Shown here piece by piece: positions 618 through 18,974 of a stretch of DNA of 18,974 bases. Each line of letters starts with the position of its first letter. Within the stretch, counting starts at the first letter, position 1. Location of the stretch: positions 1 through 18,974 of IMG/VR virus record IMGVR_UViG_3300045988_008842, one strand, 5' to 3'. The translations under genes were made by a program, and so were the position numbers. The stretch is from a virus. A model generated the notes under the pieces. The model was not told where the DNA came from. It saw only the letters and a program-made list of their open reading frames with translations, and ran no database searches.

Positions 618-652
618 AAGCCCCTAGGTTATTAACCTAGGGGCTTATTTTA
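618..652. terminator. Bidirectional intrinsic terminator between convergent genes
   Basis: A 13-bp perfect stem AAGCCCCTAGGTT (618-630) / AACCTAGGGGCTT (634-646) has a 3-nt loop. It is followed by ATTTTAT on the + strand. It sits between the stop of 367..612(+) and the stop of the endolysin gene (663, minus strand). Confidence 0.8.
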
Positions 653-662
653 TGCTGTCAAT

Positions 663-1340: not shown

Positions 1341-1341
1341 T

Positions 1342-1713: not shown

Positions 1714-1724
1714 TAATTATCTCC

Positions 1725-2792: not shown

Positions 2793-2806
2793 GCTTGCAA
2801 CCCTCC

Positions 2807-2848
2807 TAAAACTAGCGGAGGGCGTGCGCCATGACTCGCACGCCCTCC
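2807..2848 (-). terminator. GC-rich hairpin plus short U run in the ATPase leader (terminator/attenuator)
   Basis: On the minus strand GGAGGGCGTGCG (2848-2837) pairs with CGCACGCCCTCC (2828-2817) around an 8-nt loop, followed by GCTAGTTTTA. The ATPase RBS AGGAGGG (2807-2801) follows immediately. Confidence 0.55.
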
Positions 2849-2911
2849 ACCAACCTATCATTGGCAGCCGTTCAAAGGGGAAAGGTCATCATACAACCAC
2901 TGCCACTATTA

Positions 2912-2920
2912 AGTATACCA
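2912..2920 (-). promoter_or_regulatory. Extended -10 promoter TGgTATACT
   Basis: The minus strand reads TG-g-TATACT, 5 nt after the stop codon of the tail lysin gene (2926). It faces the ATPase-holin-endolysin cassette. A second -10-like TATGAT lies at 2893-2888. Confidence 0.4.
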
Positions 2921-2925
2921 CACTT

Positions 2926-4137: not shown

Positions 4138-4162
4138 GCCACCATTATAGTGGCATGGCTAT
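4130..4162 (-). promoter_or_regulatory. 13-bp hairpin enclosing the start codon of the tail lysin gene, with TATAAT in the loop
   Basis: 4130-4142 is the reverse complement of 4150-4162. The minus-strand loop is TATAATG. ATG 4137-4135 lies in the 3' arm. The minus strand continues TACTTTTGAT after the stem. No usable SD precedes the ATG. Confidence 0.5.
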
Positions 4163-4179
4163 GTGTGGATTATCGGAGA

Positions 4180-5640: not shown

Positions 5641-5819
5641 TGGTTTGCTCCTTTGGTTTCACGGATGAGGGTTTCCAGTTGGTGTATGAGTCGGTCGATC
5701 ATCACCATTGCCCGATTATATCCGTCGCGCAGATCGGACGGGGTATCGTCGGCGTAGAGAGGTAGCCCGTAGGTTGTGGTGCGCCCGTACATGTCGCGGT
5801 TTTCGTCATTTTCATTCAT
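5637..5819 (-). CDS. 60-aa protein that is a stand-alone copy of the fibre N-terminal anchor module
   Basis: TTTYGLPLYADDTPSDLRDGYNRAMVMIDRLIHQLETLI aligns with KTDNYGLNLYGDSDPADLRDGYNGSMRTIDSTLETHLNRI of the next gene. Its stop overlaps the fibre ATG (ATGA at 5637-5640). Its own ATG overlaps the upstream stop by 8 nt. Confidence 0.6.
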   Translation of the reverse strand: MNENDENRDMYGRTTTYGLPLYADDTPSDLRDGYNRAMVMIDRLIHQLETLIRETKGANQ

Positions 5820-6447
5820 GGTCTTCTCTTTCTCTGATGTAGATACAGTTCCCGCAAGAATAAAAATCGGTCACCCCGTCCGTGACTATCGTTCCGGCTG
5901 GGGTGCGCCCTAGGCTCAGGGAAAAATAAAACGGCAGAGCAAGCCCCGTCAATGTCCCCGTGGCGGCATATGAGAAATACAATGGGACCAGGATATTCGG
6001 CACGCCCCTACCGACGGTGTCCTTCATCGCCATGTTGACTAGTGTCGTCTGGAAGGTATTCCAGGGCCCCGGTGTTCCCTGTTTTTTATCGCCCACCACC
6101 CACAGCAGCCCGAACGATGGAAGATAGGCGGCGGGGGTTACCCCATTTACAAGTGAGTTGAGAAATGCGATGTACGCGACTTTGAGTTGTTCACTCCACA
6201 CGAGAATGACCTGATCCTCAAGCGTTGTTGTCACTGGAGTCGTTAGAATGTCGTTTATGGACAACACTGTCCCCCACGGTAGTGTTGCCGTCACGTTCAT
6301 GTTGTCCGTATCCTTTTGCACTTCGAACCCCGCTTGAGAGCATACTTCATCGAGCGCGATATTAAGCTGGGTTCTGAAGTCGCGGCCTTCTGAATCTTTC
6401 AAACCACGAACGGTTATCGAGCTTATCGTTTTTTTGATATCCATCAT
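5812..6447 (-). CDS. Hypothetical tail/receptor-binding module protein (211 aa)
   Basis: The start is trimmed to MMDIKK (ATG 6447), preceded by GAAGGGGG and overlapping the upstream stop (ATGA). No motif was recognised. Its position between the collar and fibre genes suggests a structural tail role. Confidence 0.6.
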   Translation of the reverse strand: MMDIKKTISSITVRGLKDSEGRDFRTQLNIALDEVCSQAGFEVQKDTDNMNVTATLPWGTVLSINDILTTPVTTTLEDQVILVWSEQLKVAYIAFLNSLVNGVTPAAYLPSFGLLWVVGDKKQGTPGPWNTFQTTLVNMAMKDTVGRGVPNILVPLYFSYAATGTLTGLALPFYFSLSLGRTPAGTIVTDGVTDFYSCGNCIYIREREDHE

Positions 6448-7070
6448 TCCCCCTTCTTTTCGTGGACAATGAAATATGTTGCTTGGGTCCCCGGTGACGT
6501 GGCTCTGTCGATTGGGATATATCCTTTTTCCGGTGATGCCGGTGGCGGTGTCGGTCGCTGATTCTGAGGTCGGGGCGTTACCCGCGGTTCTTCGTTGCCG
6601 AAAATCTCGCGATTGCCTAACACCGCCCAAGTGATGCAATCATGCTGTGCCGCCTGAGCCGTGGTTACGGTAGCCATCTGATTAACCCGCGCGCCGAATA
6701 CGGCAAGTTCGCGGTACATGTCTCGATTAGTGTTTTTCGAGTCTTCGTACTTGCCACGTGTCGGATTATAGGTAAGGGCACTGTCTTCGTATTGTCCGAC
6801 TTGCCTTTCCAAGTCGTCCAAAGTTTCATTGATGCGCTCGAATTGCTCGTTGAAACCGGCTATCAGCTGCTTGATGGCTTCGACGTCCGCGTTCTCGTCC
6901 TTGGCGAGATTGTCGAGCTGTTCCCTGAGCTGGTCGAGATGTTCGGCCACCTCCTGCACGTATCCTAATACGGTCAACGTGTCTCGGTATGAAAACGGTT
7001 GCACGGTGGTGAAATACCGTTGCCGCGGGTCGACATCCAAGGGCGCGGCGCACATGTTGATTCCGTCCAT
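6444..7070 (-). CDS. Hypothetical tail protein with central coiled coil and Pro-rich C-terminus (208 aa)
   Basis: The start is trimmed to MDGINM (ATG 7070), with GGAGG 5 nt upstream. A heptad-like acidic segment reads AEHLDQLREQLDNLAKDENADVEAIKQLIAGFNEQFERINETLDDLERQ. It shares the short string N-x-NRDMY with the 60-aa protein. Confidence 0.6.
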   Translation of the reverse strand: MDGINMCAAPLDVDPRQRYFTTVQPFSYRDTLTVLGYVQEVAEHLDQLREQLDNLAKDENADVEAIKQLIAGFNEQFERINETLDDLERQVGQYEDSALTYNPTRGKYEDSKNTNRDMYRELAVFGARVNQMATVTTAQAAQHDCITWAVLGNREIFGNEEPRVTPRPQNQRPTPPPASPEKGYIPIDRATSPGTQATYFIVHEKKGE

Positions 7071-7103
7071 ATATCCTCCAATCTGTCTCAAGTCAAGTAT
7101 ACT

Positions 7104-7916
7104 CTAATGGCCGAGATTATAGGCAAGACTCGTGCTGTAAAGCTGTGGCACGTTGGTCATATTGTCGCCACTCCCCCACATGCCCATAAACAGATCTTCA
7201 AGCGAGTTAATGACCATCATGTCAATATTGAGCATGGTATTGCGCCAATCCTGCAAGAGCTGGGACTGGGACCCGCTGGTTCCCAGGGTATGCGACGTGG
7301 AATTGCCCTTGTCGGACGAATGCGCATAATCCGTGTTGCTCGTGCTGGTTGCGGTGGCCGTGCTGTCCTGCTGGGTTGCCGTATGCGTGTTGCCCGTCGA
7401 GTCCGTTTGTGATGCGGTTGTGGCGTACTTGCGAAAATCGTCAAGGCGAGTCTGCGGGAGCTCGGAATTAAAAGTCATTGACGAATTGTCGGCCGTGGTG
7501 TCGGACGTGCTGTTAGCCGTAGACTCGTTCGACTGTGTGCCGCTCGATTTTCCGCTGGACTCGTTAACACTGGTAGAGTCCATCGACTGCTTAATATCGG
7601 ACGTAATAAAGGGGTCAAACTCGCGCTGGGCGGACAGATAGAGTTGGTTGAAATAGTCCATCTGCTCCCGCATGGTACGCCCCAAATAAAAGACGAACAT
7701 TTGCGGCGTTTCCGAACCGATTTCACGCAATGCGTAGTGTGCCACGATTTTCTCGTTCAATTTCGCCCTATAGTTTTCGTCGAAAATCGGGTAATATTGA
7801 GCGCTCAAATGCAGTTTTTCATCCGTATCGAAACCGCGTGCGATCAGATTGCCCAAAGTCAAGGTATAATCCGCCATGCTGTCTTTAACCGCATACATGC
7901 TCAAATCTTGCACCAT
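7104..7916 (-). CDS. Lower collar protein, phi29 gp11-like (270 aa)
   Basis: The start is trimmed to MVQDLS (ATG 7916), preceded by AAGGAGGAGGA and overlapping the portal stop (TAATG). The N-terminal pattern YYPIFDENYRAKLNEKIVAHYALREIGSETPQMF resembles the lower collar family of phi29-like phages. It has a long Ser/Thr-rich central region. Position immediately after the portal supports the call. Confidence 0.7.
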   Translation of the reverse strand: MVQDLSMYAVKDSMADYTLTLGNLIARGFDTDEKLHLSAQYYPIFDENYRAKLNEKIVAHYALREIGSETPQMFVFYLGRTMREQMDYFNQLYLSAQREFDPFITSDIKQSMDSTSVNESSGKSSGTQSNESTANSTSDTTADNSSMTFNSELPQTRLDDFRKYATTASQTDSTGNTHTATQQDSTATATSTSNTDYAHSSDKGNSTSHTLGTSGSQSQLLQDWRNTMLNIDMMVINSLEDLFMGMWGSGDNMTNVPQLYSTSLAYNLGH

Positions 7917-8854
7917 TAGTCCTCCTCCTTGTTGCCTTCGACATCCAGCAAACCGCCGCTGGTGGTGTCGTTCCATTCGATACCGATCGGCTTCCCGGAG
8001 TCGGCCATTTGCGGCCACAACCGGTTGATCGTGTCGCACGCCTGCTGACGAGCCTTGAGATAGCTCAACCGGAACACGTTCGTACGTGAGTTACCAGCCG
8101 TCACTTCCGATTCAAGCAGTCGTTCCTTCTTTTCCGTGGTGCTGTTGTCAATACCAAGATAGTTCACGAGTTCGTTCCAGATCTGCGTTTTCGTGGTGAT
8201 GATCTTGTCAGCAAGAAATGGGGTGACGTTCGGGAACGTTTGGAACATGCCGGTAATATCCGCCGAATCGTACGTATAAATGTACGGGTCGCCGTCTTCC
8301 CTCGCCTTCACTAGGTTTTGGGCGGTCAATTTGTTGGTTTCGGACGTTGCGATAATCAACGGCACGCTGATGTTGTCCAAATTCACGTCCAAAGCGCGGT
8401 CTGCGATGGCGAGTCGTGTGGCGTAATTCCACATGACATCAATCATGGTGCAACGTAATTGGTTGTCCCAAATCGGCACGCATTCCTTCGACCCTATTTG
8501 CGGGTGCGAGTAGTTCGTGGCTACGGGCTGAAACGAGGTCGGATTATTATAATTGTTGACTCCGCCGATATTGCCGGACGTGACCATGAAACGGTGTACA
8601 CCCTTGCGTTTGTCGGGGAAGAAGAGGGCCAACCCGTTCTCGAACAGGGTCAGTTCCAAATATCGTTCGTCGATATACGGTGGCAGGTTGACCCATTTGA
8701 ACCGGGAGACTGCCAACATCTCAATCAGCTTCATGTACTGGTTGATTCTCAGGCTTTGCCGCATTTCAGGTAGGTTCAAATTGCCCCACATTGAACCTAA
8801 TACGCTTTGATTGTCCCAGTGTGCCGCCTTACGCGCGTTGTTGCGCTTGCTCAT
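7916..8854 (-). CDS. Portal / upper collar connector, phi29 gp10-like (312 aa)
   Basis: [23 protein letters not shown] aligns with phi29 gp10 [34 protein letters not shown] aligns with EKKERMVTDEV. I prefer the start MSKRNNARK (ATG 8854, AGGA 8 nt upstream). The alternative ATG 8902 has no RBS and overlaps a TATAAT hexamer. Confidence 0.88.
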   Translation of the reverse strand: [312 protein letters not shown]

Positions 8855-8907
8855 GGTCACCGTCCTATAAATAATGGAGAGAGTTTTCTTGACTCCCTCC
8901 ATTATAT

Positions 8908-11142
8908 CTAGTATGCGATACCGGATAGTGGCGTATTGTCCGCATAATCGGTGACGCCGATTTTATCGGGGTCGGTCCATACCGTCACGCCCGATTCAAA
9001 AATGCCCTTCACTGTAAGCCGGTATTCTTCCGGGCACGTCGAGCTACGCACATACAATTCGTGCAGTTTCCAATATGTAAAATTGGACATTGCCATCAAA
9101 TTCGTAGGAAGTTGCATGAAACGTTGCACATAGTAGCCGTACCTTAACCACACTTCACCAATGGCTTGCATGGCGGCTGGGGGAATCTGCCGGAACCGCA
9201 CCATGACACCAATCAGGCCGTTAGCCAAATTGAACGCGTCACCGCCTAATGCGCCGGACGTGGTTGGCGGTACGGTTTGGGTCTGTTGTACTTGGGCGTT
9301 GATGCCGGCGATCGTGTTTCCATAATCGCCTTGCGCGGTGGCCTGCGCGAGTTGTCGGTTCATGTCCGCGAGCTGCGTTGTCTGTTGGTTGGACAGATTG
9401 GTTTGCGCGAGACTGTAGGCGTTGGCCTGCGAGGTCGAAGCGTTGTTGGTGGTTTGCGTGTTCGCAAGTTGCTGATTAGCGGTCGATACGTTGTTGTTGT
9501 AGGTTTGCTGGTTCGTCCACGCGCCGATAGCAGTGCCCGCCACTGCACCGGCCACACCGCCAATATTGCCCGTGACTGCGGAACCCACCGCGTTCGCCAC
9601 GCCACTGCCGATCGTATTCAATTGCGCCATCTGATTATTGAAACCGAGGTTTTTCAGTGTCAAGTCGGTGCCCATCTGCGCAGCCTGGTTGCTGATCGCG
9701 TTCATCGCGTTGCGGTTCGACGTGCCGAGCCGGTTTTGGGCGCTTGCATACTGTGTGCCGAGTTGTGCTTGAGCGTAGGCGTTGTTGATACCCATCTGCG
9801 TTTTCTGAAAACTCCAGTCCGCGCTTTGTTGGGCGTATTGGCGCGTGTACGCGCTGTTTGCAAGCGCCAAAGCTGACCCGTTATTTACCGCCATAAATGT
9901 AGGGAAATTGGTGATGCCGAAGGACGCGTTGAGCATTTCGCCCGTATCGATGGGCAATCCAAGACCGTTCGGCAACGGTTGGCGTTCTCCAAGATTTCCC
10001 GCATGATATCCGCGCGCGTAGAAATTCAGGCGCGGAGACGGTGGCGCGTAATTCCACGATTCTCGAATAATCAGGTCAGCGGACGGAATCTGTTCCGGCT
10101 CGTATGTGATCACGGTGCCGTTCAGGCACGAGCATTCGATGTAGGCATATGGCGCTGTGAGGAATTTTTTCAGATACTTGTAGCGTTCCGGCAACTGGAA
10201 TGCGTCCCGAAAATCCTTAATATCGATAATATCTTCATATCTGTCAGAAGAATTCGCGACATTACCGGTAAGTAGCCAGCATGACCCCGACCATTGCACA
10301 TCCTGCCCGAACAATTTCGGATTTTTGGCGGCATGGTTTTCAAGCATTTTCGTTGGAATGGTCGGCACCATGTAAATCCCGCATATGCCTTGTGTAGCCC
10401 ACGGTTTCGTAGACCCTGCCCCGAAGAATCTAAAAATATCGGACGTGTTGTCTAAATAGTAGAGTTCCGTACCGTTCATCTGGTTTTCAAACGTACTTCC
10501 GGTAGCGCTCTGGATAGTAGGGTTGTCTTTGGTTCCCGCGTCGGCTTCTAGCTTTACGGTGGTGGCAATGATAATGCCATACGAGTATGCCGAGTTTGAC
10601 TTAGCACCCATCAATGGGTGCCATGACTCATTGGTCAGTACGGTGCATTTGCCGGTGTCGAGTCCTTCGGGAAGATCCAAATACGTTTTTCCATAGTCTT
10701 TCCAGGCGTTCTCGTTCGCAATGCCCACATGGCCGCGTTCGACATAGGCGTTGCCCAATTGAATATCATGCTGGAATGACTGCCACACATCCAATTGGAT
10801 ATTGAGCTGTGTGGTGTGTGCGTTCACATAATCGCATGTCTGGATGAAATAATACCAACTGCGGGGGGTGTCGAAGTCATAGTCGTTCGTCGCGATCAGA
10901 TAATTGTACCGACATGCTTGGGCGAACGGCACCGGTAGTCGTACCGGAAGGCCATATTTCGCCATAGTGCAGTCGGTGAACTCGATACCGTCCAATCGGT
11001 CGAAATAATCTCTTTGAGCTTGCTCGCTCCATCTGACTATATCCCTATAACCCATGTCCCACGGGACGTTGCAGAGTTTGAATCTGGTGTTTGGTGTCCA
11101 TTTCGCATAGCTGAAGTTTATAGGCAAGTCGTTCGCGCTCAT
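8908..11142 (-). CDS. Tail knob / distal tube protein, phi29 gp9-like (744 aa)
   Basis: The N-terminal pattern NVPWDMGYRD ... YNYLIATNDYDFDTPRSWYYFIQTCDYVNAHTTQLNIQLDVWQSF matches phi29 gp9 (DVPFSNDYKN ... [41 protein letters not shown]). It carries a long Q/N/A-rich insertion with a Gly/Ala hydrophobic core. AGGAGA RBS. Confidence 0.85.
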   Translation of the reverse strand: MSANDLPINFSYAKWTPNTRFKLCNVPWDMGYRDIVRWSEQAQRDYFDRLDGIEFTDCTMAKYGLPVRLPVPFAQACRYNYLIATNDYDFDTPRSWYYFIQTCDYVNAHTTQLNIQLDVWQSFQHDIQLGNAYVERGHVGIANENAWKDYGKTYLDLPEGLDTGKCTVLTNESWHPLMGAKSNSAYSYGIIIATTVKLEADAGTKDNPTIQSATGSTFENQMNGTELYYLDNTSDIFRFFGAGSTKPWATQGICGIYMVPTIPTKMLENHAAKNPKLFGQDVQWSGSCWLLTGNVANSSDRYEDIIDIKDFRDAFQLPERYKYLKKFLTAPYAYIECSCLNGTVITYEPEQIPSADLIIRESWNYAPPSPRLNFYARGYHAGNLGERQPLPNGLGLPIDTGEMLNASFGITNFPTFMAVNNGSALALANSAYTRQYAQQSADWSFQKTQMGINNAYAQAQLGTQYASAQNRLGTSNRNAMNAISNQAAQMGTDLTLKNLGFNNQMAQLNTIGSGVANAVGSAVTGNIGGVAGAVAGTAIGAWTNQQTYNNNVSTANQQLANTQTTNNASTSQANAYSLAQTNLSNQQTTQLADMNRQLAQATAQGDYGNTIAGINAQVQQTQTVPPTTSGALGGDAFNLANGLIGVMVRFRQIPPAAMQAIGEVWLRYGYYVQRFMQLPTNLMAMSNFTYWKLHELYVRSSTCPEEYRLTVKGIFESGVTVWTDPDKIGVTDYADNTPLSGIAY

Positions 11143-11151
11143 AAAAGTTCT

Positions 11152-11193
11152 CCTAAAAATAATAGGTGTGAATAAAGTCTATCCACACCTATT
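11152..11193 (-). terminator. Intrinsic terminator downstream of the major capsid gene
   Basis: On the minus strand a 10-bp stem (11193-11184 / 11170-11161) with a 13-nt loop is followed by ATTTTTA. The tail-knob RBS follows. A partial terminator after the capsid gene is a common way to set the capsid:tail ratio. Confidence 0.6.
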
Positions 11194-11213
11194 TTAGCGG
11201 CTGGTTATCATCG

Positions 11214-12929
11214 CTATGCGATGACGGTGACCTTTGCCGTTCCGACAGCTCCCGCAAACTTCACAGAGACGTTGGCAGTGCCCGCTACGGTTCCTGTCAA
11301 CACTCCGTTAGGGGTGACGGTCGCGTGGGCGTCCACCGTCCACATGGCGAGATTGGTGACGTCTGCTGTGTTGCCGTCCGTCTTGGTGGCGATCGCCTTA
11401 AGAACCACATTGCCGTTCACTTTGACCGACGTTCCGCCCTGAATCTCAACGGACTCGATGGCACCAGTTTTCCAACCGCCCAACCATTCTCCGACCACGG
11501 GCACGGATAGTGCGGCGGAAACCGTCTGGTCGATTTCAGGCGTGGCCGGATTGATGTAGGTAGCCTGGGCGGTGACCTTAAGCGTTTCGGCGGTTTCATC
11601 CAAACCACAACGGAGGATACCGTCGTTATCAATGGTCGTGAACTGGGAGGTTGCGCCCTCGACAGCATATTTAATGCCTGTCGGCTGGAACGTCGCCGTC
11701 TCCTTGTTGGCGCTCGTAATAGTGGACACCACCTGCACCAGGTCGCCACGGGACACGTTCTGCGGAGTGATGGCGAGCTGACCGTATTTCTGCACGCGCA
11801 ACTCGAATACCGGCGTTGAGGTGGTGAGCGTATCCGGCAACGTCACGGACTCATTGGAGCCTTCACCGGTCCAGAAAAGAATCGCGTTCGCAAACGGATT
11901 AGGAGTAATGCTACCACGATGCTTATAGAAAATGTTGCGCGTGCCGTCAATCGGGTTCACGGGAGAATTGGTGGTCTCCAGCATTTCATCCCAGCAGAAG
12001 AAGAAGTCCTCCGTGGTAAGCACTGCCTGAACCTTGCCACCCTGTCCGCCAATACCAAACATATCCTCCGGAATCGGAATGATACGATACGGGACGTTCA
12101 CTTTATCAATGTTGAATGCGGCGGCCAATGCTTCGACGTTGAGCGCGGCGATAACCTGCGGAGTGGCGAACAAGATCGCTTCACTATCTCGCCATGGCGT
12201 GACCCACGACATGGCGTTATACCGCGGCATGGCGCTCATTGGCGACGCCTTCAATTCGTTCGCCATCTGCTGAATGAGGCGCAGTAGACCCCTCGCGTCC
12301 GCTTCGGTCGAGTCGGCCTTACCAACGTCGGGGGTATGCACGCGGTAGAAACCGCCCTTACGAGCGTACTCCGCAAACGTCTGCGTCTTCATGAGATACA
12401 TATCGTTTCTATCCGAGAGGATAGGTGCGTTCATGATTTCAGCGATATAATCCGACATGCCCGACTCACCGTCGAAAGCCGTCAGCAGCGCATCCTCTGG
12501 AATGGTGACGGGGTAATAATGGTCAAAAGTCAGGGGGTGGAACACGCTTGCAGTCGGAAGCGAGTAGCGGCCATACACATCGTCGCCCAAATATTCCTTA
12601 TTGAAGTTACGGGTGCGTGCCTTGACGAGGCCGACTGCCGCCTGTTCGTAGGTGGAGCCGTAGCGCTTGAGGGTGCGCGGGGAACCGATCAGTTTGAGCG
12701 GGTCATCCCAGTCGGCGTGCTGAATGTATAAGCCGATGAGACGCTGGATGAGTACGCCGGTGAACTCGTCGCGCAAATAGGGGAAGTTGCGCATGGTGTC
12801 CACGGCGTTCCGAATATTGCCTTGCGTTGCCGATGGGATACGGGTCTGGAACTGGGGGCTGGTGGCGTTTCGGACGGCATTGAAGATCTCAACGTCACCC
12901 TTGCCAGCCAATGGTCGAATATTAGACAT
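11214..12929 (-). CDS. Major capsid protein with C-terminal Ig-like (Big_2-type) domain (571 aa)
   Basis: Its size and its position after the scaffold gene match phi29 gp8, which also carries a C-terminal Ig-like domain. The C-terminus VTVTPNGVLTGTVAGTANVSVKFAGAVGTAKVTVIA is typical of Big_2. GGAG RBS. It is followed by a terminator. Confidence 0.8.
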   Translation of the reverse strand: MSNIRPLAGKGDVEIFNAVRNATSPQFQTRIPSATQGNIRNAVDTMRNFPYLRDEFTGVLIQRLIGLYIQHADWDDPLKLIGSPRTLKRYGSTYEQAAVGLVKARTRNFNKEYLGDDVYGRYSLPTASVFHPLTFDHYYPVTIPEDALLTAFDGESGMSDYIAEIMNAPILSDRNDMYLMKTQTFAEYARKGGFYRVHTPDVGKADSTEADARGLLRLIQQMANELKASPMSAMPRYNAMSWVTPWRDSEAILFATPQVIAALNVEALAAAFNIDKVNVPYRIIPIPEDMFGIGGQGGKVQAVLTTEDFFFCWDEMLETTNSPVNPIDGTRNIFYKHRGSITPNPFANAILFWTGEGSNESVTLPDTLTTSTPVFELRVQKYGQLAITPQNVSRGDLVQVVSTITSANKETATFQPTGIKYAVEGATSQFTTIDNDGILRCGLDETAETLKVTAQATYINPATPEIDQTVSAALSVPVVGEWLGGWKTGAIESVEIQGGTSVKVNGNVVLKAIATKTDGNTADVTNLAMWTVDAHATVTPNGVLTGTVAGTANVSVKFAGAVGTAKVTVIA

Positions 12930-12949
12930 TATGTTATCTCCTAACTATT

Positions 12950-13237
12950 TTAGTCGAACAAATCTTCGATAGATTCGGTGCTGTCATTGTCTCCGTCGCC
13001 GTCATTGTCGGACGGTGCGGGGTCATTGTAGCCGAGCGTGTCCATCATGGCTTTCAGTCCGGCCAATTCCTTTTCGATCGCGTCAAGGCGGGCGGAAACG
13101 TCCGGCTCCTGTTTCAGATCCGGTTCCGGCTCGGGTTCTTTCGGCTTTACTTCATCATCTACGGTTTCGGTTTGCTGTTCCTCTTCGGTCGGCGGCGGAG
13201 TGGTGGTTTCCTCGCCGTCATTGTCTGGGTCTGCCAT
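12950..13237 (-). CDS. Putative scaffolding protein (95 aa, very acidic, helical core)
   Basis: It is the first gene after the late promoter and immediately upstream of the capsid gene, like phi29 gp7 (98 aa). It has D/E/P/T-rich termini and a helical core LDAIEKELAGLKAMMDTL. AGGAG RBS. The assignment rests on position and composition only. Confidence 0.5.
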   Translation of the reverse strand: MADPDNDGEETTTPPPTEEEQQTETVDDEVKPKEPEPEPDLKQEPDVSARLDAIEKELAGLKAMMDTLGYNDPAPSDNDGDGDNDSTESIEDLFD

Positions 13238-13272
13238 ACAAACTCCTAACGATTGGCAATAGTTTCATAGAA

Positions 13273-13281
13273 ATTATATCA
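13273..13281 (-). promoter_or_regulatory. Late promoter, extended -10 TGaTATAAT
   Basis: The minus strand reads CATGATATAAT, directly after the early/ncRNA terminator and about 36 nt upstream of the scaffold ATG (13237). Confidence 0.55.
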
Positions 13282-13288
13282 TGTCGTA

Positions 13289-13322
13289 AGAAAATAAAAT
13301 GACCCCGCAATCACGCGGGGTC
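13289..13322 (-). terminator. Intrinsic terminator ending the early operon / ncRNA
   Basis: On the minus strand GACCCCGC (13322-13315) pairs with GCGGGGTC (13308-13301) around a 6-nt loop, followed by ATTTTATTTT (13300-13291). Confidence 0.8.
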
Positions 13323-13460
13323 GAAACGTCTTATGTGAGCGCGAGTTGAAGATCGTAGGGCACTACCGCCACGATAATGATTTTCACAGTCGGCGGCATT
13401 CTCAGCCGTGGCAGTCCGACTCATGTTGCTCCCAGTCGAAAATCGACGCTCAGGAAGACT
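13291..13460 (-). ncRNA. Candidate prohead/packaging RNA (pRNA-like), about 165-170 nt
   Basis: It has its own extended -10 promoter and terminator and no ORF. By hand fold, the 5'/3' ends pair in a helix with an internal loop. There is also a stem with an 8-nt bulge loop ACUGCCAC and a hairpin with loop GGUAGU complementary to that bulge over 6 nt. A 3' terminal hairpin forms a separate domain. See the first finding for coordinates. Confidence 0.5.
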
Positions 13461-13465
13461 CAATT

Positions 13466-13474
13466 ATTATAGCA
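13466..13474 (-). promoter_or_regulatory. Extended -10 promoter TGcTATAAT overlapping the polymerase stop codon
   Basis: The minus strand reads GTG-CTA-TAA-T, so the TAA stop lies inside TATAAT. The 17-mer TGCTATAATAATTGAGT is repeated with one mismatch at 15987-15971. Confidence 0.5.
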
Positions 13475-14918
13475 CGACTACCGTGCCGTAATCGTCCATG
13501 ACTTGCGTTCCATGCCGGAACTCTTCGTAGGGAATGGGCCGGGAGAACATGTTTCCAGCCATGCAAACGTCAACCCCCCCGTCTTCCCTCCATCCTTGAT
13601 AACGATTCATGCCAAGAATAGTGAGTTTCTCGTATCGTGCGGAGATCCTCCACTTGCCGAGTTCGGTCGGATGAATCTCGCATGATCGTACCGGTTCCCA
13701 GCCGGATAGGATGCAACCGTCCGTGTTCGCGTAAAGTAACCGGTCGGCGTTCGCGTGGCACACGTCCATGAGTTTGCGGCGTGCATAAGCATTGACCCAC
13801 ACGGGCACGGGCAGATAGTCGGTTTTCAGGTTCGATTCTTCGCGCTGGGCAACATCCCAGTCGAGAGTGATGCCGTCTTTGGAGAAGGGGAGTAGGACGG
13901 TGCCTTTTGGGAGACTCGCCATTTTCCCCACCAGGGCGTTCATAATCAGTTTCGCCATCTGCCGTTTCTCGCCCGTCGCCTTCTGTTTCAAGTCTCCCCA
14001 TTCATCGACGAATGAACGGAAATAGCCTTTGGAGCGGCGGAATTTCCACCCTCGAACATGCTGGTATATAGTCACTTCGTAATTGTCGTACAGTAGTTGC
14101 TGATCAATGTCAGTCAATACGCGCGTGATATAGCCACGTGTCGAAGTGAGACGGTTCAAGCCGTACACGCTACGATTGTCGAGTAGAAATGGGTAGCCGT
14201 TTGGTTTGAGTTCCGCGCGAAACGTGAGTTCGTCGCAATGCAATGGCATGTCATCATCTTGGACGTATTCGCCGTCGTATTGTTCCGGTTCGCCCCACGG
14301 CAACCACTCGTCCCGTAATATGGACGGATACATTGAGTTGCAGTCAACGTCAATAGCCCTGCCATACGCCACTTCTCTTGCGATCATGAAACCGCCGATA
14401 TAAGCATCATGCAATGACTTTTTGGTTTCGGTTTCGAGTTGGGGGAATTTGTCGTAATACCATTTCCACTCGCCGGACGCGAACGCCTCCATACTCGCCC
14501 CGCCCGCCGTGATCTTGCACAAGTTGCGATTATCATACTCACGCAGAATATTGAGTAGTTGCGTGTCGGTCATGGTGATACGGCAGTTTTCACACAGTAG
14601 ATTGGAAATGTCGAAGAAGCGTGCCGAGTTTTCACGGTCGATACGTGCCGTGAAGCTGAAAAATTTGCCTTTTTTCGAGATGATGGCGTCCCAGCTCAGA
14701 TTAGCATTGTGTTCGTTGTGGGGCAATGCGTGTACGACGTGCGCTATAAATGGGTCAAGCAGTTCGGGATTAGTCACGTAGACGGTGAGTTTGCCGCCCG
14801 ACATGATGTACGCCAAAAGGCGGTTAGGCGCGGTAATGTCACGCAATGCGGTGCCGTCCGTGAATCGTATGACGTTATCCGCACACCACAATCCCACTCG
14901 ATTGTCTTGCCTGGTCAT
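13467..14918 (-). CDS. Protein-primed family-B DNA polymerase, phi29 gp2-like (483 aa)
   Basis: FPQLETETKKSLHDAYIGGF aligns with phi29 FPTLSLGLDKEVRYAYRGGF. Motif A is DVDCNSMYPS and motif B is KLIMNALVGK. A TPR2-like insertion reads MASLPKGTVLLPFSKDGITLDW. Motif C is YANTDG (phi29 YCDTDS). ELGKW and VCMAGN are in the thumb. The start is trimmed to MTRQDN (ATG 14918, AAAGGA upstream); the track ORF extension would overlap the upstream gene by 116 nt. Confidence 0.93.
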   Translation of the reverse strand: MTRQDNRVGLWCADNVIRFTDGTALRDITAPNRLLAYIMSGGKLTVYVTNPELLDPFIAHVVHALPHNEHNANLSWDAIISKKGKFFSFTARIDRENSARFFDISNLLCENCRITMTDTQLLNILREYDNRNLCKITAGGASMEAFASGEWKWYYDKFPQLETETKKSLHDAYIGGFMIAREVAYGRAIDVDCNSMYPSILRDEWLPWGEPEQYDGEYVQDDDMPLHCDELTFRAELKPNGYPFLLDNRSVYGLNRLTSTRGYITRVLTDIDQQLLYDNYEVTIYQHVRGWKFRRSKGYFRSFVDEWGDLKQKATGEKRQMAKLIMNALVGKMASLPKGTVLLPFSKDGITLDWDVAQREESNLKTDYLPVPVWVNAYARRKLMDVCHANADRLLYANTDGCILSGWEPVRSCEIHPTELGKWRISARYEKLTILGMNRYQGWREDGGVDVCMAGNMFSRPIPYEEFRHGTQVMDDYGTVVVL

Positions 14919-14946
14919 GGTATAACTATCCTTTATTTGCCGTCCG

Positions 14947-15909
14947 CTACTTTTCCAGTGCGCCCGCTTCCGCCAACCACCTGTCAAACTGCTTGCGGGA
15001 TCGCTGATAGCCCTCGCTGTTGTCACGGAACACTGAAGTAAAACCGTGCCGTACTGGATCATATACCGTCCAGTCGAACACGATGCGCGGCGCGTCCGTC
15101 TGCTCGATGAACGCGCGTTTTTGCGCTGCCGACAGTTGACGGAATCGTTTCAACCGTTTCGAGCCGAGAGTGGTAGCCAAGATCTTCTCGAACACCTCAT
15201 AACGCCCGCGACTCATATAGGACGGCCAATCATGCTCGCCGTACAGGTCTTTGCCCTGTTTACCTGTTCCCCGCCTTTTGGACGGTTTGTTTTTTTGTTC
15301 GGTGCGCAATCCCAGTATTTCGGCGGCGTCATGGATCTGGTCCAGTAGTTCGTTGCGATGGCCGCTTTCCAGTTGGGAGCGCACGAATGCTTCGTCTGAC
15401 AGCACGTTGGTCATCTGCAGAAAGTCGGTGAGTTTCGATGGAATGATCTGATTGCGGCCGAAGCCTTCGCCGGTGGTGCCGGTGATTTCGCCCACGCGTT
15501 GGTCGTACACGCTTTTCGCGGGCATGGCTTGAGCTTTGTTCCATTCGTTGATTTTCCGTCGTGCCGCATTGATTTTCCGCTGCTGTTGCCTCAGGAGTTT
15601 GCGTCGCTTCGCCACCGGCTCCGCCTGAATTTGCGCGTCTGTGATGGGTGTGCGCCCTGCGAACATGTAGTCTTTCTTTGTCGGCTTTTCGATGGCGGCG
15701 GCGCGGTATGGTGTTGCTTTCGCTTCCGCTATGGCCTGTTTCTTCTGCCGCTCCCACTCCTTGCCCAAGGTTTTCGCGATATTGACTAGTTGTTTGTCCG
15801 CGGTTTTGGCGAGATTCGAGTGGGAGTAAGCGCCAAGCTGTTTGATGTTGCGGGCGGCGCGGGCTTGCGCGGCCTGACGTGCCTTGACATGCTTTTGCTT
15901 TCGAGACAT
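14947..15909 (-). CDS. Putative terminal protein (320 aa, basic)
   Basis: It lies immediately upstream of the protein-primed polymerase, as phi29 gene 3 does relative to gene 2. It is lysine/arginine-rich (KRRKLLRQQQRKINAARRKINEW, KNKPSKRRGTGKQGK). The genome has ITR ends. No sequence motif was recognised, so the call rests on synteny and composition. Confidence 0.5.
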   Translation of the reverse strand: MSRKQKHVKARQAAQARAARNIKQLGAYSHSNLAKTADKQLVNIAKTLGKEWERQKKQAIAEAKATPYRAAAIEKPTKKDYMFAGRTPITDAQIQAEPVAKRRKLLRQQQRKINAARRKINEWNKAQAMPAKSVYDQRVGEITGTTGEGFGRNQIIPSKLTDFLQMTNVLSDEAFVRSQLESGHRNELLDQIHDAAEILGLRTEQKNKPSKRRGTGKQGKDLYGEHDWPSYMSRGRYEVFEKILATTLGSKRLKRFRQLSAAQKRAFIEQTDAPRIVFDWTVYDPVRHGFTSVFRDNSEGYQRSRKQFDRWLAEAGALEK

Positions 15910-15931
15910 ATGGCACAGTCCTTAAGATGGC

Positions 15932-15956
15932 GAGAGCACCCAAATTGGGTGCTCTC
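15932..15956 (-). promoter_or_regulatory. 11-bp perfect hairpin in the leader of the terminal-protein/polymerase genes
   Basis: GAGAGCACCCA (15932-15942) and TGGGTGCTCTC (15946-15956) are exact reverse complements around a 3-nt loop. No U tract follows on either strand. The hairpin lies between the promoter at 15987-15979 and the RBS AAGGA of the gene starting at 15909. Confidence 0.5.
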
Positions 15957-15978
15957 TATGAATGAACGCTACTCAGTT

Positions 15979-15987
15979 ATTATAGCA
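15979..15987 (-). promoter_or_regulatory. Extended -10 promoter TGcTATAAT upstream of the terminal protein gene
   Basis: The minus strand reads GCTTGCTATAATAACTGAGT, starting 3 nt after the stop of the SSB-like gene. It matches the promoter at 13474-13458 in 16 of 17 positions. Confidence 0.5.
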
Positions 15988-15990
15988 AGC

Positions 15991-16425
15991 TCACTTGGTT
16001 TCCTCGTCCACCGGCTCAATGCTGAAAAACTTGAAGCCACGACGGGAGCGACGTTCGACAACCTTGATGCACAGCGGTTCCGTCCACGTGTTCGGCGTGC
16101 CGAAGATACCGAACATGGTGTTCAGTCCCGCCGCGAGAGTGGGGGAGGTGGCCGCGTACGCCTTGTTATCGTCGGTCACGATGATGACGCGCACGGTGTT
16201 GGAGATTTCGCCCGTCTGGTCGTCGGTCACCTGCACGGCCTGGGCGACGGCGTTCGTCATGTTCAGCGGCTCGTTGAGGTGTTCGTCGAGCTTTTCGGCG
16301 TTCTGCAATGCCGAGTAGAGCTTGATCTTGCCTTCACGGGTCGAAGTGTCGATGAAGTGCTGGACGGTGCCGAGTTCGGTGTTCTCGGTGCTGAACGCGA
16401 TGAGTGCGGTATTAGTGTTTTCCAT
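15991..16425 (-). CDS. Putative ssDNA-binding protein (144 aa)
   Basis: Its position corresponds to phi29 gene 5 (gene order 6-5-..-3-2). The overall pattern (VRVIIVTDDNKAYAATSPTLAAGLNTMFGIFGTPNTW ... KVVERRSRRGFKFFSIE, acidic C-terminal end) resembles phage OB-fold SSBs from memory, not from a search. GGAAAGG RBS. Confidence 0.4.
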   Translation of the reverse strand: MENTNTALIAFSTENTELGTVQHFIDTSTREGKIKLYSALQNAEKLDEHLNEPLNMTNAVAQAVQVTDDQTGEISNTVRVIIVTDDNKAYAATSPTLAAGLNTMFGIFGTPNTWTEPLCIKVVERRSRRGFKFFSIEPVDEETK

Positions 16426-16482
16426 TGTTTAACCTTTCCTAGATTGTTGTTATTTTATTTTCAGGCTTATGCCTAAAATCTT

Positions 16483-16491
16483 TTTATATCA
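16483..16491 (-). promoter_or_regulatory. Extended -10-like element TGaTATAAA overlapping a stop codon
   Basis: The minus strand reads GTG-TGA-TATAAA, so the TGA stop of the 105-aa gene supplies the TG. An AT-rich leader of about 50 nt precedes the SSB-like gene. Confidence 0.35.
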
Positions 16492-16806
16492 CACGTCTTC
16501 GTTATTTTCAGCGTCGGCGTGTCGGTTTTTTGTATGCTCTTCTGGATTCCATTCTTGAGGTTCTTCAAAGGTAGCATATTTGTAGAAAGTTTCCTCATTC
16601 ATAGAGACTTTCTGAGAAAAAATACGGATGGAACGAGGAATGAAATTCGGAAACAATTTCTTCGCACGAATCGAATATGCGCGAGCGTCCTTAAGGCGTC
16701 CGTCGATAACGTGCTCGGCTCTCATGAAGTCGCCGTCCACCAATTCCATGCCCTTGAGCACGGCATATACGCGCGTGCGGAAAATTTCGGTTTTGGTTCT
16801 AGCCAA
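16489..16806 (-). CDS. Hypothetical early protein, basic N-terminal part with acidic C-terminal tail (105 aa); possible p6-like DNA-binding protein
   Basis: A TTG start has GGGGAGG 6 nt upstream and overlaps the upstream gene by 8 nt. Its size, position and acidic tail (EEPQEWNPEEH...ADAENNEDV) parallel phi29 p6. The function is inferred only. Confidence 0.55.
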   Translation of the reverse strand: MARTKTEIFRTRVYAVLKGMELVDGDFMRAEHVIDGRLKDARAYSIRAKKLFPNFIPRSIRIFSQKVSMNEETFYKYATFEEPQEWNPEEHTKNRHADAENNEDV

Positions 16807-17329
16807 TTTTTACCTCCCCTTGCAGTAAGATTTTTTGCAATTCACTGTCATCATAACGTGTCGTGTCCAGTCTGTCAAAATTTTTAAACACGGCAATAAT
16901 CAAATTCTGCGCTTGCTGACTGTCGAAAATCATGCAACAATCATACGACGTACCACCCTTGACCGCGCAGACCGCGCACCAGGCAATCAAATTAGGCGGA
17001 TTGATGGAACCGTCCAAATATTCGACATCGGACGTGCGGGATAGGGCGGCAGAGAGTCCACCCCCCATAGACAGACTGCCCGCAATCTGAGACACAGTAA
17101 CCACCGCCTGCGTAAACCACTCACTAGGAGCTTCACGCCACAACTCACATAGCATATTCACGGCACGGCAACACGTTTCAAAATCACCATACCCCAGGTC
17201 AAAACGCCTCAAGTTCAGTTCACGCTTATGGCCTTTTGTGGCGCGGACAATACGCTTGCTTTCCATGATGGCATCGTCGAAGTCACGCATACGGTAGATA
17301 GGGCGCCTATCATCGCCACTCCTAAACAT
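16799..17329 (-). CDS. Hypothetical early protein (176 aa)
   Basis: ATG 17329 has GAGGAG 7 nt upstream. It is translationally coupled on both sides. No motif was recognised. Confidence 0.65.
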   Translation of the reverse strand: MFRSGDDRRPIYRMRDFDDAIMESKRIVRATKGHKRELNLRRFDLGYGDFETCCRAVNMLCELWREAPSEWFTQAVVTVSQIAGSLSMGGGLSAALSRTSDVEYLDGSINPPNLIAWCAVCAVKGGTSYDCCMIFDSQQAQNLIIAVFKNFDRLDTTRYDDSELQKILLQGEVKIG

Positions 17330-17498
17330 AATATCGCTCCTCGACGCGAAAATAACTAATATTCTCCGTATGAGACCGGATAGCCGCCCACCGTTTAATC
17401 AAATCTGCCGCATCCTTATATGAGGACGCGTAACCGATCTCGATAGGTGGCTTGCGCGCATCCCTCAAGTATGCGAGAGCCACGAAAGTACTATACAT
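17322..17498 (-). CDS. Hypothetical small early protein (58 aa), below the ORF-track cutoff
   Basis: Hand translation gives MYSTFVALAYLRDARKPPIEIGYASSYKDAADLIKRWAAIRSHTENISYFRVEERYYV. ATG 17498 has GGAG 8 nt upstream. Its stop overlaps the next ATG by 8 nt. It fills an otherwise unexplained 170-nt gap in a tightly packed operon. Confidence 0.5.
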   Translation of the reverse strand: MYSTFVALAYLRDARKPPIEIGYASSYKDAADLIKRWAAIRSHTENISYFRVEERYYV

Positions 17499-17500
17499 GT

Positions 17501-17704
17501 CTAAAACTCCAATTCATCAACAGGATCACCATCACCATACAGCCACATGACCGCCCACAACCGCCGATCAGGGCAACGTTTCGGAGGATTAGTGGCGCTC
17601 CGCTTATGCTGTCTCCCAGCCCAAAACGCGCGCAATCGCCAATAACTATCAGCGTCCGTGCACGTGCCGCATATCCACGAATGTATCCAACCATGAAAAT
17701 ACAT
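17501..17704 (-). CDS. Hypothetical small Trp/Cys-rich early protein (67 aa)
   Basis: The start is trimmed to MYFHGW (ATG 17704), 1 nt after the upstream stop and with AGGGA upstream. It contains CGTC plus a distal Cys/His and seven Trp. Confidence 0.45.
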   Translation of the reverse strand: MYFHGWIHSWICGTCTDADSYWRLRAFWAGRQHKRSATNPPKRCPDRRLWAVMWLYGDGDPVDELEF

Positions 17705-17705
17705 A

Positions 17706-17954
17706 TCAATCCCTATCCGGTAGTGGGGTATTGGCAATATCGATAGCATCCAGCATCAAATCAACCACCTGAGGTCCATCCCCAGCATCATACGCACACA
17801 AGGCCGACCCGTCACATACACCACCGCACGGTGTACAAAACTGGACAGCATACCTCAGTTCATACCGTTGACCGTGAGGACAATACCACAGGCGCACACC
17901 ACCGCCCACAAACGGCGACGCAAACACGGCAACATTCGTGTCATTCCTACACAT
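17706..17954 (-). CDS. Hypothetical small Cys-rich early protein, zinc-ribbon-like (82 aa)
   Basis: WYCPHG ... FCTPCGGVC ... LCAY gives a C-x-H ... C-x2-C-x3-C pattern. ATG 17954 lies 1 nt after the upstream stop. Confidence 0.5.
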   Translation of the reverse strand: MCRNDTNVAVFASPFVGGGVRLWYCPHGQRYELRYAVQFCTPCGGVCDGSALCAYDAGDGPQVVDLMLDAIDIANTPLPDRD

Positions 17955-17955
17955 T

Positions 17956-18123
17956 TCAAAACCTTTTCACTACAAAACCCAATACGATAGCCACGCCCAC
18001 AGCGAGCATGACCAAAAAACAAAAAACGTCACGCGCATTACGCGGTAGTTCGCAAAACACCGTAGCAGCCATCGTAAGAAACAGAACCGCAAACAAGACA
18101 ACAATAGTCATATCAATCATCAT
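17956..18123 (-). CDS. Small membrane protein with two predicted TM helices (about 51-55 aa; start uncertain)
   Basis: IVVLFAVLFLTMAATVF and VFCFLVMLAVGVAIVLGFVV are separated by the charged loop ELPRNARD. Candidate starts are ATG 18123, 18120 and 18111. The track start 18189 is a TTG deep inside the upstream gene. Confidence 0.5.
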   Translation of the reverse strand: MMIDMTIVVLFAVLFLTMAATVFCELPRNARDVFCFLVMLAVGVAIVLGFVVKRF

Positions 18124-18361
18124 AACACCACGGCCCACTGTTAAAAGCCCGACTAAGCTCTTGAAAATCAATGCCATTACAGTAAGCAATTCCGTCGTCT
18201 ACGTCGATAAAATCCATAACAGGTACCCAACGGCCACGTTCTAGATCAAATATTTCAAACCGGTAGTCCACACCGCAGTAGTCGCATGGATGCTCACACC
18301 ACCGAAAACGACGGTCTAACCCCGTGTACGTGTCAACAACAGTAAAATAATGCCATTCCAT
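18113..18361 (-). CDS. Hypothetical small Cys-rich early protein (82 aa)
   Basis: The start is trimmed to MEWHYF (ATG 18361), with GGAGG 7 nt upstream. It contains WCEHPCDYCG (C-x3-C-x2-C with His) plus two distal Cys. Confidence 0.6.
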   Translation of the reverse strand: MEWHYFTVVDTYTGLDRRFRWCEHPCDYCGVDYRFEIFDLERGRWVPVMDFIDVDDGIAYCNGIDFQELSRAFNSGPWCYDD

Positions 18362-18375
18362 GATTTGACCTCCAA

Positions 18376-18606
18376 TCAAACGAGCGAAACTTTGACCATG
18401 CCAACCATCGTACCGTCAAGATCAAACGTGGCATTATCAATATCCACACTCACATTACGCCCAACATAAGCGCTACGAACATGAGACAACACGCCATCCA
18501 ATGACGCTTTCAACGACGCTGTATGAAACATGCCACTAGGCTTCACGCAATCAGGCAAAATCTCAAACACCTGAAAACCGTTTTCGGTGATATTAAAATA
18601 CCACAT
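18376..18606 (-). CDS. Hypothetical first early protein of the right arm (76 aa)
   Basis: The start is trimmed to MWYFNITENG (ATG 18606). This ATG and its RBS AAGGAAA belong to the ITR, mirroring ATG 367 on the left. The longer track ORF extends into ITR low-complexity sequence. Confidence 0.65.
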   Translation of the reverse strand: MWYFNITENGFQVFEILPDCVKPSGMFHTASLKASLDGVLSHVRSAYVGRNVSVDIDNATFDLDGTMVGMVKVSLV

Positions 18607-18974
18607 TTTATTTTTCCTTTCCCTTGAAGTTGATAGTTTTATCATACCACAAACAAAACAACGACACGCCCCAAACAAAACAAAACAAAAAAATAAAAAA
18701 CAACCACCGATAGGTAGACAAGCAGGCTACGGTTACGTTACCGTAACTTAGCCAGACACAGATTGTTGCATATACAACCATTGACACAGTGTCAATAAAA
18801 AAACGACACGCCGAAAATAAAAAAACTTGACAGACAGGCGTAAAAAAAATATAATAGGACTATGAACAAAACAAAGACACACAACACACACAGAACAAAA
18901 AAAAATAATACACAAATAAAAAAAGCCACAAGGGAAAATCTTCACACAAACCCACACCCCTCCCACCTCCCTCC
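18604..18974. repeat. Right inverted terminal repeat (ITR-R)
   Basis: Reverse complement of 1-369 and 2 nt longer (AAGGAAAAATAAAATG versus AAGGAAATAAAATG). The window ends ...CCCCTCCCACCTCCCTCC, the exact complement of the first bases. Confidence 0.95.
18641..18649 (-). promoter_or_regulatory. Extended -10 promoter TGgTATGAT (right early promoter, ITR copy)
   Basis: Exact mirror of 326-334. It faces the whole minus-strand early operon. Confidence 0.5.

Follow-up and report, generated by a model that had tools for sequence, protein, structure and literature searches.

The DNA studied here, 18,974 bases from IMG/VR record IMGVR_UViG_3300045988_008842 (positions 1 to 18,974; hereafter, the window), is the complete linear genome of a podophage of the phi29-like type. 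We found that the gap following its DNA polymerase gene (13238–13466) is a small RNA gene on the minus strand, which consists of an extended −10 promoter, a structured core of 132 nucleotides (nt; 13459–13328), and an intrinsic terminator. It is close to certain that the locus is a genuine conserved gene for a structured non-coding RNA. On balance, sequence and structure comparisons suggest that the core is a divergent functional counterpart of the prohead, or packaging, RNA (pRNA) of phage phi29. This reading is the best supported, because of the structural match to phi29 pRNA, the positions of the interlocking ("kissing") bases, the motor proteins encoded by the genome, the position of the gene, and the recurrence of the same design across phage lineages.

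Conservation and covariation of the RNA

Homologues were gathered through the capsid gene, through the conserved RNA motif (in IMG/VR and metagenomes), and from GenBank, yielding 119 distinct full-length versions. A covariance model, R1, was built from 76 homologues. In every relative, R1 detects a single copy in the genome, and this copy invariably lies after the polymerase gene and ahead of the capsid operon; the window scores 146 bits, and divergent members score down to 79–107 bits. Base pairs were counted both in a plain MAFFT alignment, which was not fitted to structure, and in a 100-sequence covariance-model alignment, while the consensus fold was obtained with RNAalifold. All three agree on the structure.

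A pRNA-like fold had been drawn by hand for this gap in a first-pass annotation made from the sequence alone, and the stretch indeed folds better than shuffled controls: the minimum free energy (MFE) of 170 nt is −64.7 kcal/mol, compared with −49.2 ± 4.1 kcal/mol for shuffles (z = −3.79; none of 200 as good). In the 100-sequence alignment, 96.2% of 4,098 cells hold standard pairs, and 29 of the 41 pairs show compensatory change on both sides. Compensatory cells number 225, versus 51 ± 6 in shuffles (none of 500 as high), and pairing falls to 36–48% when the 3' partners are slid by 1–3 columns. Since G-U cells exceed A-C cells 308 to 60 (about 5:1), it is the minus-strand transcript that is under selection. 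The lengths of the homologues (172–181 nt) fall into all classes modulo 3, and one- and two-base indels occur; a coding explanation is thus excluded, and the gap holds no conserved open reading frame (ORF), in line with the first-pass annotation, which had seen no ORF there.

Secondary structure

The elements of the model are listed in Table 1. The 5' and 3' ends of the core (13459–13446 with 13342–13328) pair to form an interrupted helix, both segments of which covary. In the outer segment of this A helix, 98% of cells are paired and four of the five pairs show compensatory changes; in the inner segment, GC is replaced by AU in 14 sequences and CG by UA in six, and the five core pairs have no mismatch. 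Between the segments, CC (13454–13453) lies opposite CAU (13335–13333) in an internal loop.

The elements of the phi29 prohead-binding domain design, namely a C helix, a CE bulge, an E helix of 4 base pairs (bp), a D hairpin, and a three-way junction, are all present, and all the helices covary. Seven of the nine C-helix pairs are compensatory, with 93% of cells paired. The E-like hairpin is the most conserved part of the RNA and is varied to CGAC/GUCG and CACC/GGUG. A linker, AAAAU, leads from this arm to the D hairpin, whose strands (13379–13373 with 13367–13361) are paired in 99.6–100% of cells and show compensatory changes at five (MAFFT alignment) to seven (100-sequence alignment) of the seven pairs; variants include CAUUGUC/GACAAUG, UGCCGUU/GACGGUG, UGCUGUU/AACAGUG, and UAUGGGU/GCCCGUA. 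The D hairpin stacks directly on the CCC strand of the short GGG/CCC helix, which is paired in 100% of cells and also occurs as GAG/CUC and AGG/CCU. The weakest helix of the model is the small hairpin H1, with compensatory changes at one (MAFFT alignment) to two (100-sequence alignment) of three pairs; H1 was counted one base off the coordinates in Table 1 (as U13446–A13436, C13445–G13437, and G13444–C13438, with A13443–U13439 left out).

The hand-drawn fold of the first-pass annotation agrees with this model in part. Its terminal helix (GUCUU/AAGAC and UGAGCG/CGCUCA) and its second stem (AGUCGG/CCGACU with a 5' bulge and a capped hairpin) were recovered by RNAalifold, and both covary in relatives. 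Covariation failed for its third hairpin (AUCGUGGC/GCC-cu-ACGAU, loop GGUAGU), which can be drawn in the window but shows one compensatory cell and 19 mismatches at one pair among 76 homologues. We rejected this hairpin because the D hairpin, with which it is mutually exclusive, covaries and is almost invariably paired. Three elements were absent from the earlier fold: the hairpin at 13445–13437, the GGG/CCC helix, and the partly near-invariant 15-nt single strand at 13357–13343.

No covarying partner was found for the UACGAU of this single strand, whose sole complement is the AUCGU of the rejected third hairpin, which does not covary with it. H1 (UCGAUUUUCGAC, 13446–13435) and the single strand (ACGAUCUUCAAC, 13356–13345) form a direct repeat on the minus strand, with nine of 12 bases identical, and the family consensus has CGAUUUUC in both; they could be two copies of one predicted protein-binding site. 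A pairing of UCGAUUUU with GAAAAUCA, present in the single-sequence MFE structure, was dropped, as the 3' partner is not conserved.

Table 1. Features of the RNA gene and its surroundings (window coordinates)
Feature	Positions	Strand	Remarks
Extended −10 promoter TGcTATAAT	13466–13474	−	overlaps DNA polymerase stop codon TAA (13469–13467)
A helix outer, 5' strand GUCUU	13455–13459	−	pairs with AAGAC 13332–13328
A helix inner, 5' strand UGAGCGU	13446–13452	−	pairs with GCGCUCA 13342–13336 (RNAalifold)
Small hairpin H1, CGA-UUU-UCG	13437–13445	−	99% of cells paired
GGG	13431–13433	−	pairs with CCC 13360–13358; short helix closing the three-way junction
C helix, 5' strand CAU-g-AGUCGG	13416–13425	−	G13422 bulged; pairs with CCGACUGUG 13393–13385
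CE-like bulge ACUGCCA	13409–13415	−	5' side only; last four bases GCCA (13412–13409) complement the D loop
E-like hairpin CGGC-UGAGAAU-GCCG	13394–13408	−	99.5% of cells paired
D-like hairpin CAUUAUC-GUGGC-GGUAGUG	13361–13379	−	loop 13372–13368; independently predicted by RNAalifold
Single-stranded segment UACGAUCUUCAACUC	13343–13357	−	15 nt; UACGAU near-invariant; invariant columns in alignments A2 and A3
A helix, 3' strands GCGCUCA (13342–13336), loop CAU, AAGAC (13332–13328)	13328–13342	−	RNAalifold, covariation
Intrinsic terminator, hairpin and U tract	13291–13322	−	separate 3' domain; terminator scan, covarying stem
Second extended −10, TGaTATAAT	13273–13281	−	downstream of the terminator; present in six GenBank relatives

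Complementarity between the bulge and the D loop

The GCCA that ends the bulge is complementary to UGGC (13371–13368), which ends the 5-nt D loop, and 97.3% of cells are paired across the 100 sequences. The first pair (columns 58/106) is G-C in 74 sequences, G-U in 15, and A-U in 11, with no mismatches. The middle pairs are C-G in all 100 (59/105) and C-G in 94 or U-G in six (60/104); the fourth is A-U in 85, G-U in four, and unpaired in 11. Counts were the same on the MAFFT alignment. On a neighbour-joining tree built without the kissing columns, bulge column 58 changed at least six times and loop column 106 at least nine times, and A at 58 never occurred together with C at 106. The ability of the CE bulge to form Watson–Crick pairs with the D loop thus appears to have been maintained in evolution; the evidence for this is good but not overwhelming, because it amounts to ~5–6 independent events at a single pair.

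The kissing interaction originally drawn for this RNA, ACUGCC with GGUAGU, did not stand up as such. The 6-nt complementarity is real in the window, but GGUAGU is a strand of the D-hairpin stem, and covariation in relatives is lacking here as well: 90% of cells are paired in divergent homologues, with 22 and 13 mismatches at two pairs. On the closer set, the same register slid by 3 scores equally well, reflecting the GGY repeats of GUGGCGGUAGUG. The bulge pairs with GUGGCGGUAGUG in three registers, of which the loop register alone persists in divergent homologues.

Promoter, terminator, and position of the gene

The extended −10 element read by the first-pass annotation at 13474–13466 is present and conserved: among 100 homologues, TGnTAnnnT is found upstream in 99 and TGnTATAAT in 85. 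The first G of the terminal helix lies 6–7 nt past the −10 element in 79 of 100 homologues, and transcription probably starts at G13459 or A13460. A terminator scan recovered the terminator that had been proposed at 13322–13301, a 9-bp GC-rich hairpin (GACCCCGCG-UGAU-UGCGGGGUC) followed by AUUUUAUUUU. Its stem covaries (CCCCGCG/CGCGGGG to CCCUCCG/CGGAGGG), and a U run follows it in 96 of 100 homologues. The late operon (a 95-amino-acid (aa) ORF, then the capsid gene) is probably transcribed from the second extended −10 element, which 93 of 100 homologues also have no more than 120 nt downstream. Identity across the gap, both −10 boxes included, is 76–85% among six GenBank relatives. The RNA unit and the late unit both have extended −10 promoters without a clear −35 element.

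With its conserved promoter and terminator, the RNA gene stands where the early operon (terminal protein candidate, polymerase) ends and ahead of the late operon. Its product is probably a non-coding RNA of ~167 nt that is started by the gene's own extended −10 promoter and ended by the intrinsic terminator.

The phage and its packaging motor proteins

Almost every gene of the window is on the minus strand. Upstream of the gap, the order is single-stranded DNA-binding protein, a 320-aa ORF, and family-B DNA polymerase (13467–15062); the gap is followed by the 95-aa ORF and the genes for the major capsid protein, a tail protein, the upper collar (portal), the lower collar, endolysin, and the packaging ATPase. 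Proteins of the window matched PHROG families for DNA polymerase, upper collar, lower collar, and terminase. The packaging ATPase (1725–2861, minus strand) aligns with full-length phi29 gp16 (7jqq, E = 7.5e-37), and the portal (7916–8902, minus strand) aligns with the phi29 connector (1h5w, E = 2e-28). The genome ends in inverted terminal repeats of 367 bp (1–367 and 18608–18974) that are 99% complementary. These repeats and the PHROG and structure matches identify a phi29-like phage with a linear genome of the protein-primed type, a gp16-type ATPase, and a gp10-type connector. The capsid protein shows distant kinship (24% identity) to capsids of Bacillus phi29-like phages, and the nearest relatives of the window are the Bifidobacterium podophages BP1 (81% identity) and BD811P1-3 (77%), along with a human faecal contig. 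Because of the ATPase, portal, and capsid matches and these Bifidobacterium podophage relatives, the window is a phi29-like phage of an actinobacterial host, Bifidobacterium.

Several further features of the genome were observed. T-rich tracts of the TTTTG type (272–324) lie inside the inverted terminal repeats. The longest polymerase ORF (13467–15062, 531 aa) overlaps the 320-aa ORF (14947–15909) by 116 nt (14947–15062, minus strand). Polymerases of the relatives are annotated as shorter (446–484 aa), so the true polymerase start is probably internal. The 320-aa ORF has no match to any PHROG family and occupies the position of a terminal protein, for which it is a candidate. The portal probably starts at an internal methionine, Met17, which gives it a basic N-terminus (MSKRNNARK, MSKRNNARKAAHW). 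The basic N-terminus of the phi29 connector binds pRNA, and that of the window portal is reminiscent of it.

Counterparts in other actinobacterial phages

In the four genomes of Arthrobacter Anjalivirus, a structured RNA of ~100 nt is followed by a strong terminator (Mendel, NC_048740, 4934–5105, plus strand). Its terminal helix, in three segments with compensatory changes, is joined directly to the D hairpin and the junction. In the arm, the C helix (5+4 bp) contains one bulged base and is followed by a 6-nt bulge confined to the 5' side; a CCCC/GGGG E helix with the loop UUGAAU caps the arm, and a 3-nt linker leads to the D hairpin. Bulge and D loop both end in the self-complementary AGCU. 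As judged from the sequences, the predicted layout is essentially that of phi29. The RNA has no match in Rfam and is also unannotated.

Phi29-like phages of Curtobacterium have the same RNA layout at the same place (Pize, 3937–4110, plus strand; z = −4.5). The bulge and loop differ between subgroups: in Ellison17 and Ayka they read UGCA/UGCA, in Fairywren and Reje CGC/GCG, a U-A pair having been exchanged for C-G. Like the window RNA, the Arthrobacter and Curtobacterium RNAs come after the polymerase region, with a strong terminator behind them and then a scaffold-like ORF and the capsid gene; an annotated ribbon-helix-helix gene (Arthrobacter) or an unnamed small ORF (Curtobacterium) stands between polymerase and RNA. 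Their arm has the same parts: a C helix, a bulge confined to the 5' strand, an E helix that is short (4 bp in Arthrobacter, 3–4 bp in Curtobacterium), and a 6-nt loop with UGAA. A D hairpin is likewise present, and its loop is complementary to the 3' end of the bulge. Their sequences, however, are unrelated to that of the window RNA, and their long terminal helix meets the junction directly, without an extra hairpin. The phi29-like phages with this recurring design all carry gp16-type ATPases.

An RNA locus also follows the polymerase gene in the honeybee Bifidobacterium phages BadAztec1 (12680–12857, minus strand) and BadAargau2 (13051–13229, minus strand). A TGcTATA(G/A)T promoter precedes an RNA of ~115 nt that is closed by UGAGCG/CGCUCA, and the locus also has a GC-rich hairpin; compensatory changes include one from ACAG/CUGU to GCGG/CCGC. 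No intermediates linking the two groups of Bifidobacterium phages turned up in IMG/VR, and the Rfam pRNA model gave no match to the Arthrobacter and BadAztec candidates. In Actinomyces phage Av-1, the gap before ORF8 and the head gene (4471–4611, plus strand) has a promoter annotated in it, together with a short hairpin region and a terminator hairpin that is very strong (z = −3.6); the full pRNA-like layout was not seen in this gap. In papers on these Bifidobacterium, Arthrobacter, and Curtobacterium phages, we found no mention of pRNA, and we found no published description of the Arthrobacter and Curtobacterium RNAs.

Proposed function of the RNA

If the RNA acts as a pRNA, the arm composed of the C helix, the 7-nt bulge, and the E hairpin would, together with the D hairpin, bind the portal vertex of the empty prohead. 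The GCCA bulge of one molecule would pair with the UGGC D loop of the next to give a closed ring, and the helix formed by the 5' and 3' ends would project outward and dock the gp16-type packaging ATPase, which would then thread the protein-capped linear DNA into the head. We infer expression, ring formation between molecules, prohead binding, and a role in packaging from the comparisons described above.

Several observations weigh against this assignment. The pRNA model of Rfam (RF00044), a scan that the first-pass annotation had suggested as a check, gave no match in the window at the gathering score (100 bits) and none with E ≤ 10 in 13150–13600, while the same search on phi29 gave 145 bits. 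The miss does not exclude a distant relative, because a published pRNA model also missed the candidate of Streptococcus phage Cp-1 (PMC6266182). The third arm of the junction is the 3-bp GGG/CCC helix rather than the A helix; H1 and the 15-nt conserved single strand, which phi29 lacks, separate the terminal helix from the junction; and the terminal helix has ~11–12 bp, compared with ~24 in phi29. Position 4 of the kissing interaction is U.U in nine sequences and A.C in two, leaving 3 bp; of the four kissing pairs, a single one has changed on both sides, and the sequences share ancestry. The sequence fits intermolecular and intramolecular bulge–loop pairing alike. Finally, R1 missed the syntenic honeybee-phage RNA (BadAztec1), and the two honeybee-phage sequences gave no inner fold.

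Some of these points would suit the main rival reading, a structured small RNA with another trans-acting role, such as an early-to-late regulator, a decoy for a protein of the host or the phage, or an anti-defence RNA, whose bulge and loop would form an intramolecular pseudoknot. Such an RNA could well be placed exactly between the early and late operons with a promoter and a terminator of its own, its near-invariant UACGAU and E hairpin look like putative binding sites, and the lack of a match to the Rfam pRNA model and the ambiguity of the bulge–loop pairing would be expected. We nevertheless consider this role unlikely: the element-by-element match to the phi29 prohead-binding domain, including the positions of the complementary bases, would have to be a coincidence, the design recurs in other phi29-like phages that all carry gp16-type ATPases, and a regulator that acts by base pairing would usually present an exposed seed region, not 41 conserved pairs. 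A cis-acting leader or attenuator, in which the fold or a bound factor would suppress the terminator and thereby control the late genes, is more doubtful still. The terminator does begin 5 nt past the fold, and the late genes come next on the same strand; however, the second extended −10 promoter, conserved past the terminator in nearly all homologues, makes such a leader unlikely. Moreover, no alternative pairing of the fold with the terminator stem was seen, the two being separate and covarying independently, and the core is closed by its own 5' and 3' ends, as in a free-standing RNA.

Hardly any weight is left for an element acting at the DNA level, a small unannotated coding gene, or a chance fold. 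A 50-codon ORF with a TTG start (13311–13463, minus strand) does overlap the region, but the indels and the range of homologue lengths described above are incompatible with it. The compensatory changes are strand-specific, with G-U favoured over A-C, and the observed covariation was not reached by any shuffle; the strand-specific covariation excludes all three. The preferred reading of the core remains that of a pRNA counterpart.

Implications

Prohead RNA is the sole known RNA essential to a viral DNA-packaging motor, and the reason for the use of RNA is still open; pRNA is also a widely used building block of RNA nanotechnology. It is about as likely as not that prohead RNAs were present in the ancestral motor and are general to phi29-like phages, among them soil actinophages and the abundant Bifidobacterium phages of the human gut, and that each lineage has its own interlocking-loop code (GCCA/UGGC, AGCU/AGCU, or UGCA/UGCA). 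In that case, the window RNA would represent a variant in which an additional hairpin and a conserved single strand may offer a further protein contact. If the pRNA assignment is true, the known range of RNA-dependent motors widens considerably, taking in phages from the human gut and from hosts of another phylum. More than 100 natural variants, plus at least two further lineages with other loop codes, would be available for comparative work, as would new self-assembling three-way-junction scaffolds of higher GC content, and annotation pipelines and the current Rfam model would be missing such genes.

Comparison with phi29 pRNA and other known RNAs

A search of the whole window with Rfam 15 gave no match at the gathering score to any family, and matches in the gap were at chance level (E = 2.3–8.7; RAGATH-31, CRISPR-DR10, and snoRNAs). 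Purine riboswitch aptamers have a three-way junction with intramolecular contacts between distal loops. The window RNA resembles them in having two arms of similar length that leave a three-way junction and carry complementary distal loops. Unlike them, it uses a mid-arm bulge as one partner, has its own promoter and terminator, and lacks an expression platform; none of the riboswitch families of Rfam matched it.

Recent reviews describe pRNA as confined to phi29 and its relatives in Bacillus (PMC5066667, PMC11476376). The earlier belief that pRNAs are characterised only in such phages thus agrees with the reviews and is nearly right, but an old pRNA prediction for Streptococcus phage Cp-1 is cited in PMC6266182. 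Compared with Bacillus-only accounts, it is new that gut Bifidobacterium phages encode a pRNA-like RNA whose junction is altered and which has counterparts in soil actinophages. In phi29, the bulge and D loops mediate the formation of an intermolecular ring on the prohead, for which two G-C pairs suffice (PMC5066667).

The phi29 pRNA gene lies downstream of the genes for the terminal protein and polymerase and of gene 1, on the same strand, and the window RNA gene, directly after the polymerase gene on the same strand, is the counterpart of this order. Surroundings differ in other respects: the window gene is located mid-genome, between early and late operons that are all on one strand, and the phi29 gene at the genome end; the terminal repeats are 367 bp in the window phage and 6 bp in phi29; and the hosts are an actinobacterium and Bacillus, respectively.

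The two RNAs have no sequence similarity. Their structures after the A helix can be written as

<<<<<-<<<<---------<<<<______>>>>>>>>>>>>>,,,<<<<<<_____>>>>>>

for the RF00044 consensus on phi29, and as

<<<-<<<<<<-------<<<<_______>>>>>>>>>>>>>,,,,<<<<<<<_____>>>>>>>

for the window RNA model. In both, the C helix has 9 bp with one bulged base on the 5' strand, and the bulge is confined to the 5' side (9 nt in phi29, 7 nt in the window RNA). The E helix has 4 bp in each, and the E loop, UUGAGU (6 nt) in phi29 and UGAGAAU (7 nt) in the window RNA, contains UGAG in each. The linker to the D hairpin is 3 nt in phi29 and 5 nt in the window RNA, the D stem has 6 and 7 bp, the D loop has 5 nt in both, and neither RNA has a linker from the D hairpin to the closing helix. 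In each RNA, the interlocking bases form the 3' ends of the bulge and of the D loop, four nucleotides on either side: AACC/GGUU in phi29 and GCCA/UGGC in the window RNA. A helix of paired ends with an internal loop, a predicted primary transcript of ~170 nt from its own promoter, and a separate 3' hairpin domain are further phi29-like traits. From the phi29 layout first proposed for this locus, the paired ends, the bulged and capped arm, a second hairpin, bulge–loop complementarity, and the 3' terminator domain were thus retained, whereas the third hairpin and the kissing pair as originally drawn were not, and the terminal helix does not join the junction directly as it does in phi29. The comparison suggests that the window RNA probably works like pRNA and is related to it; since the model misses the RNA and the junction differs, we place it outside RF00044 as that family is currently defined.

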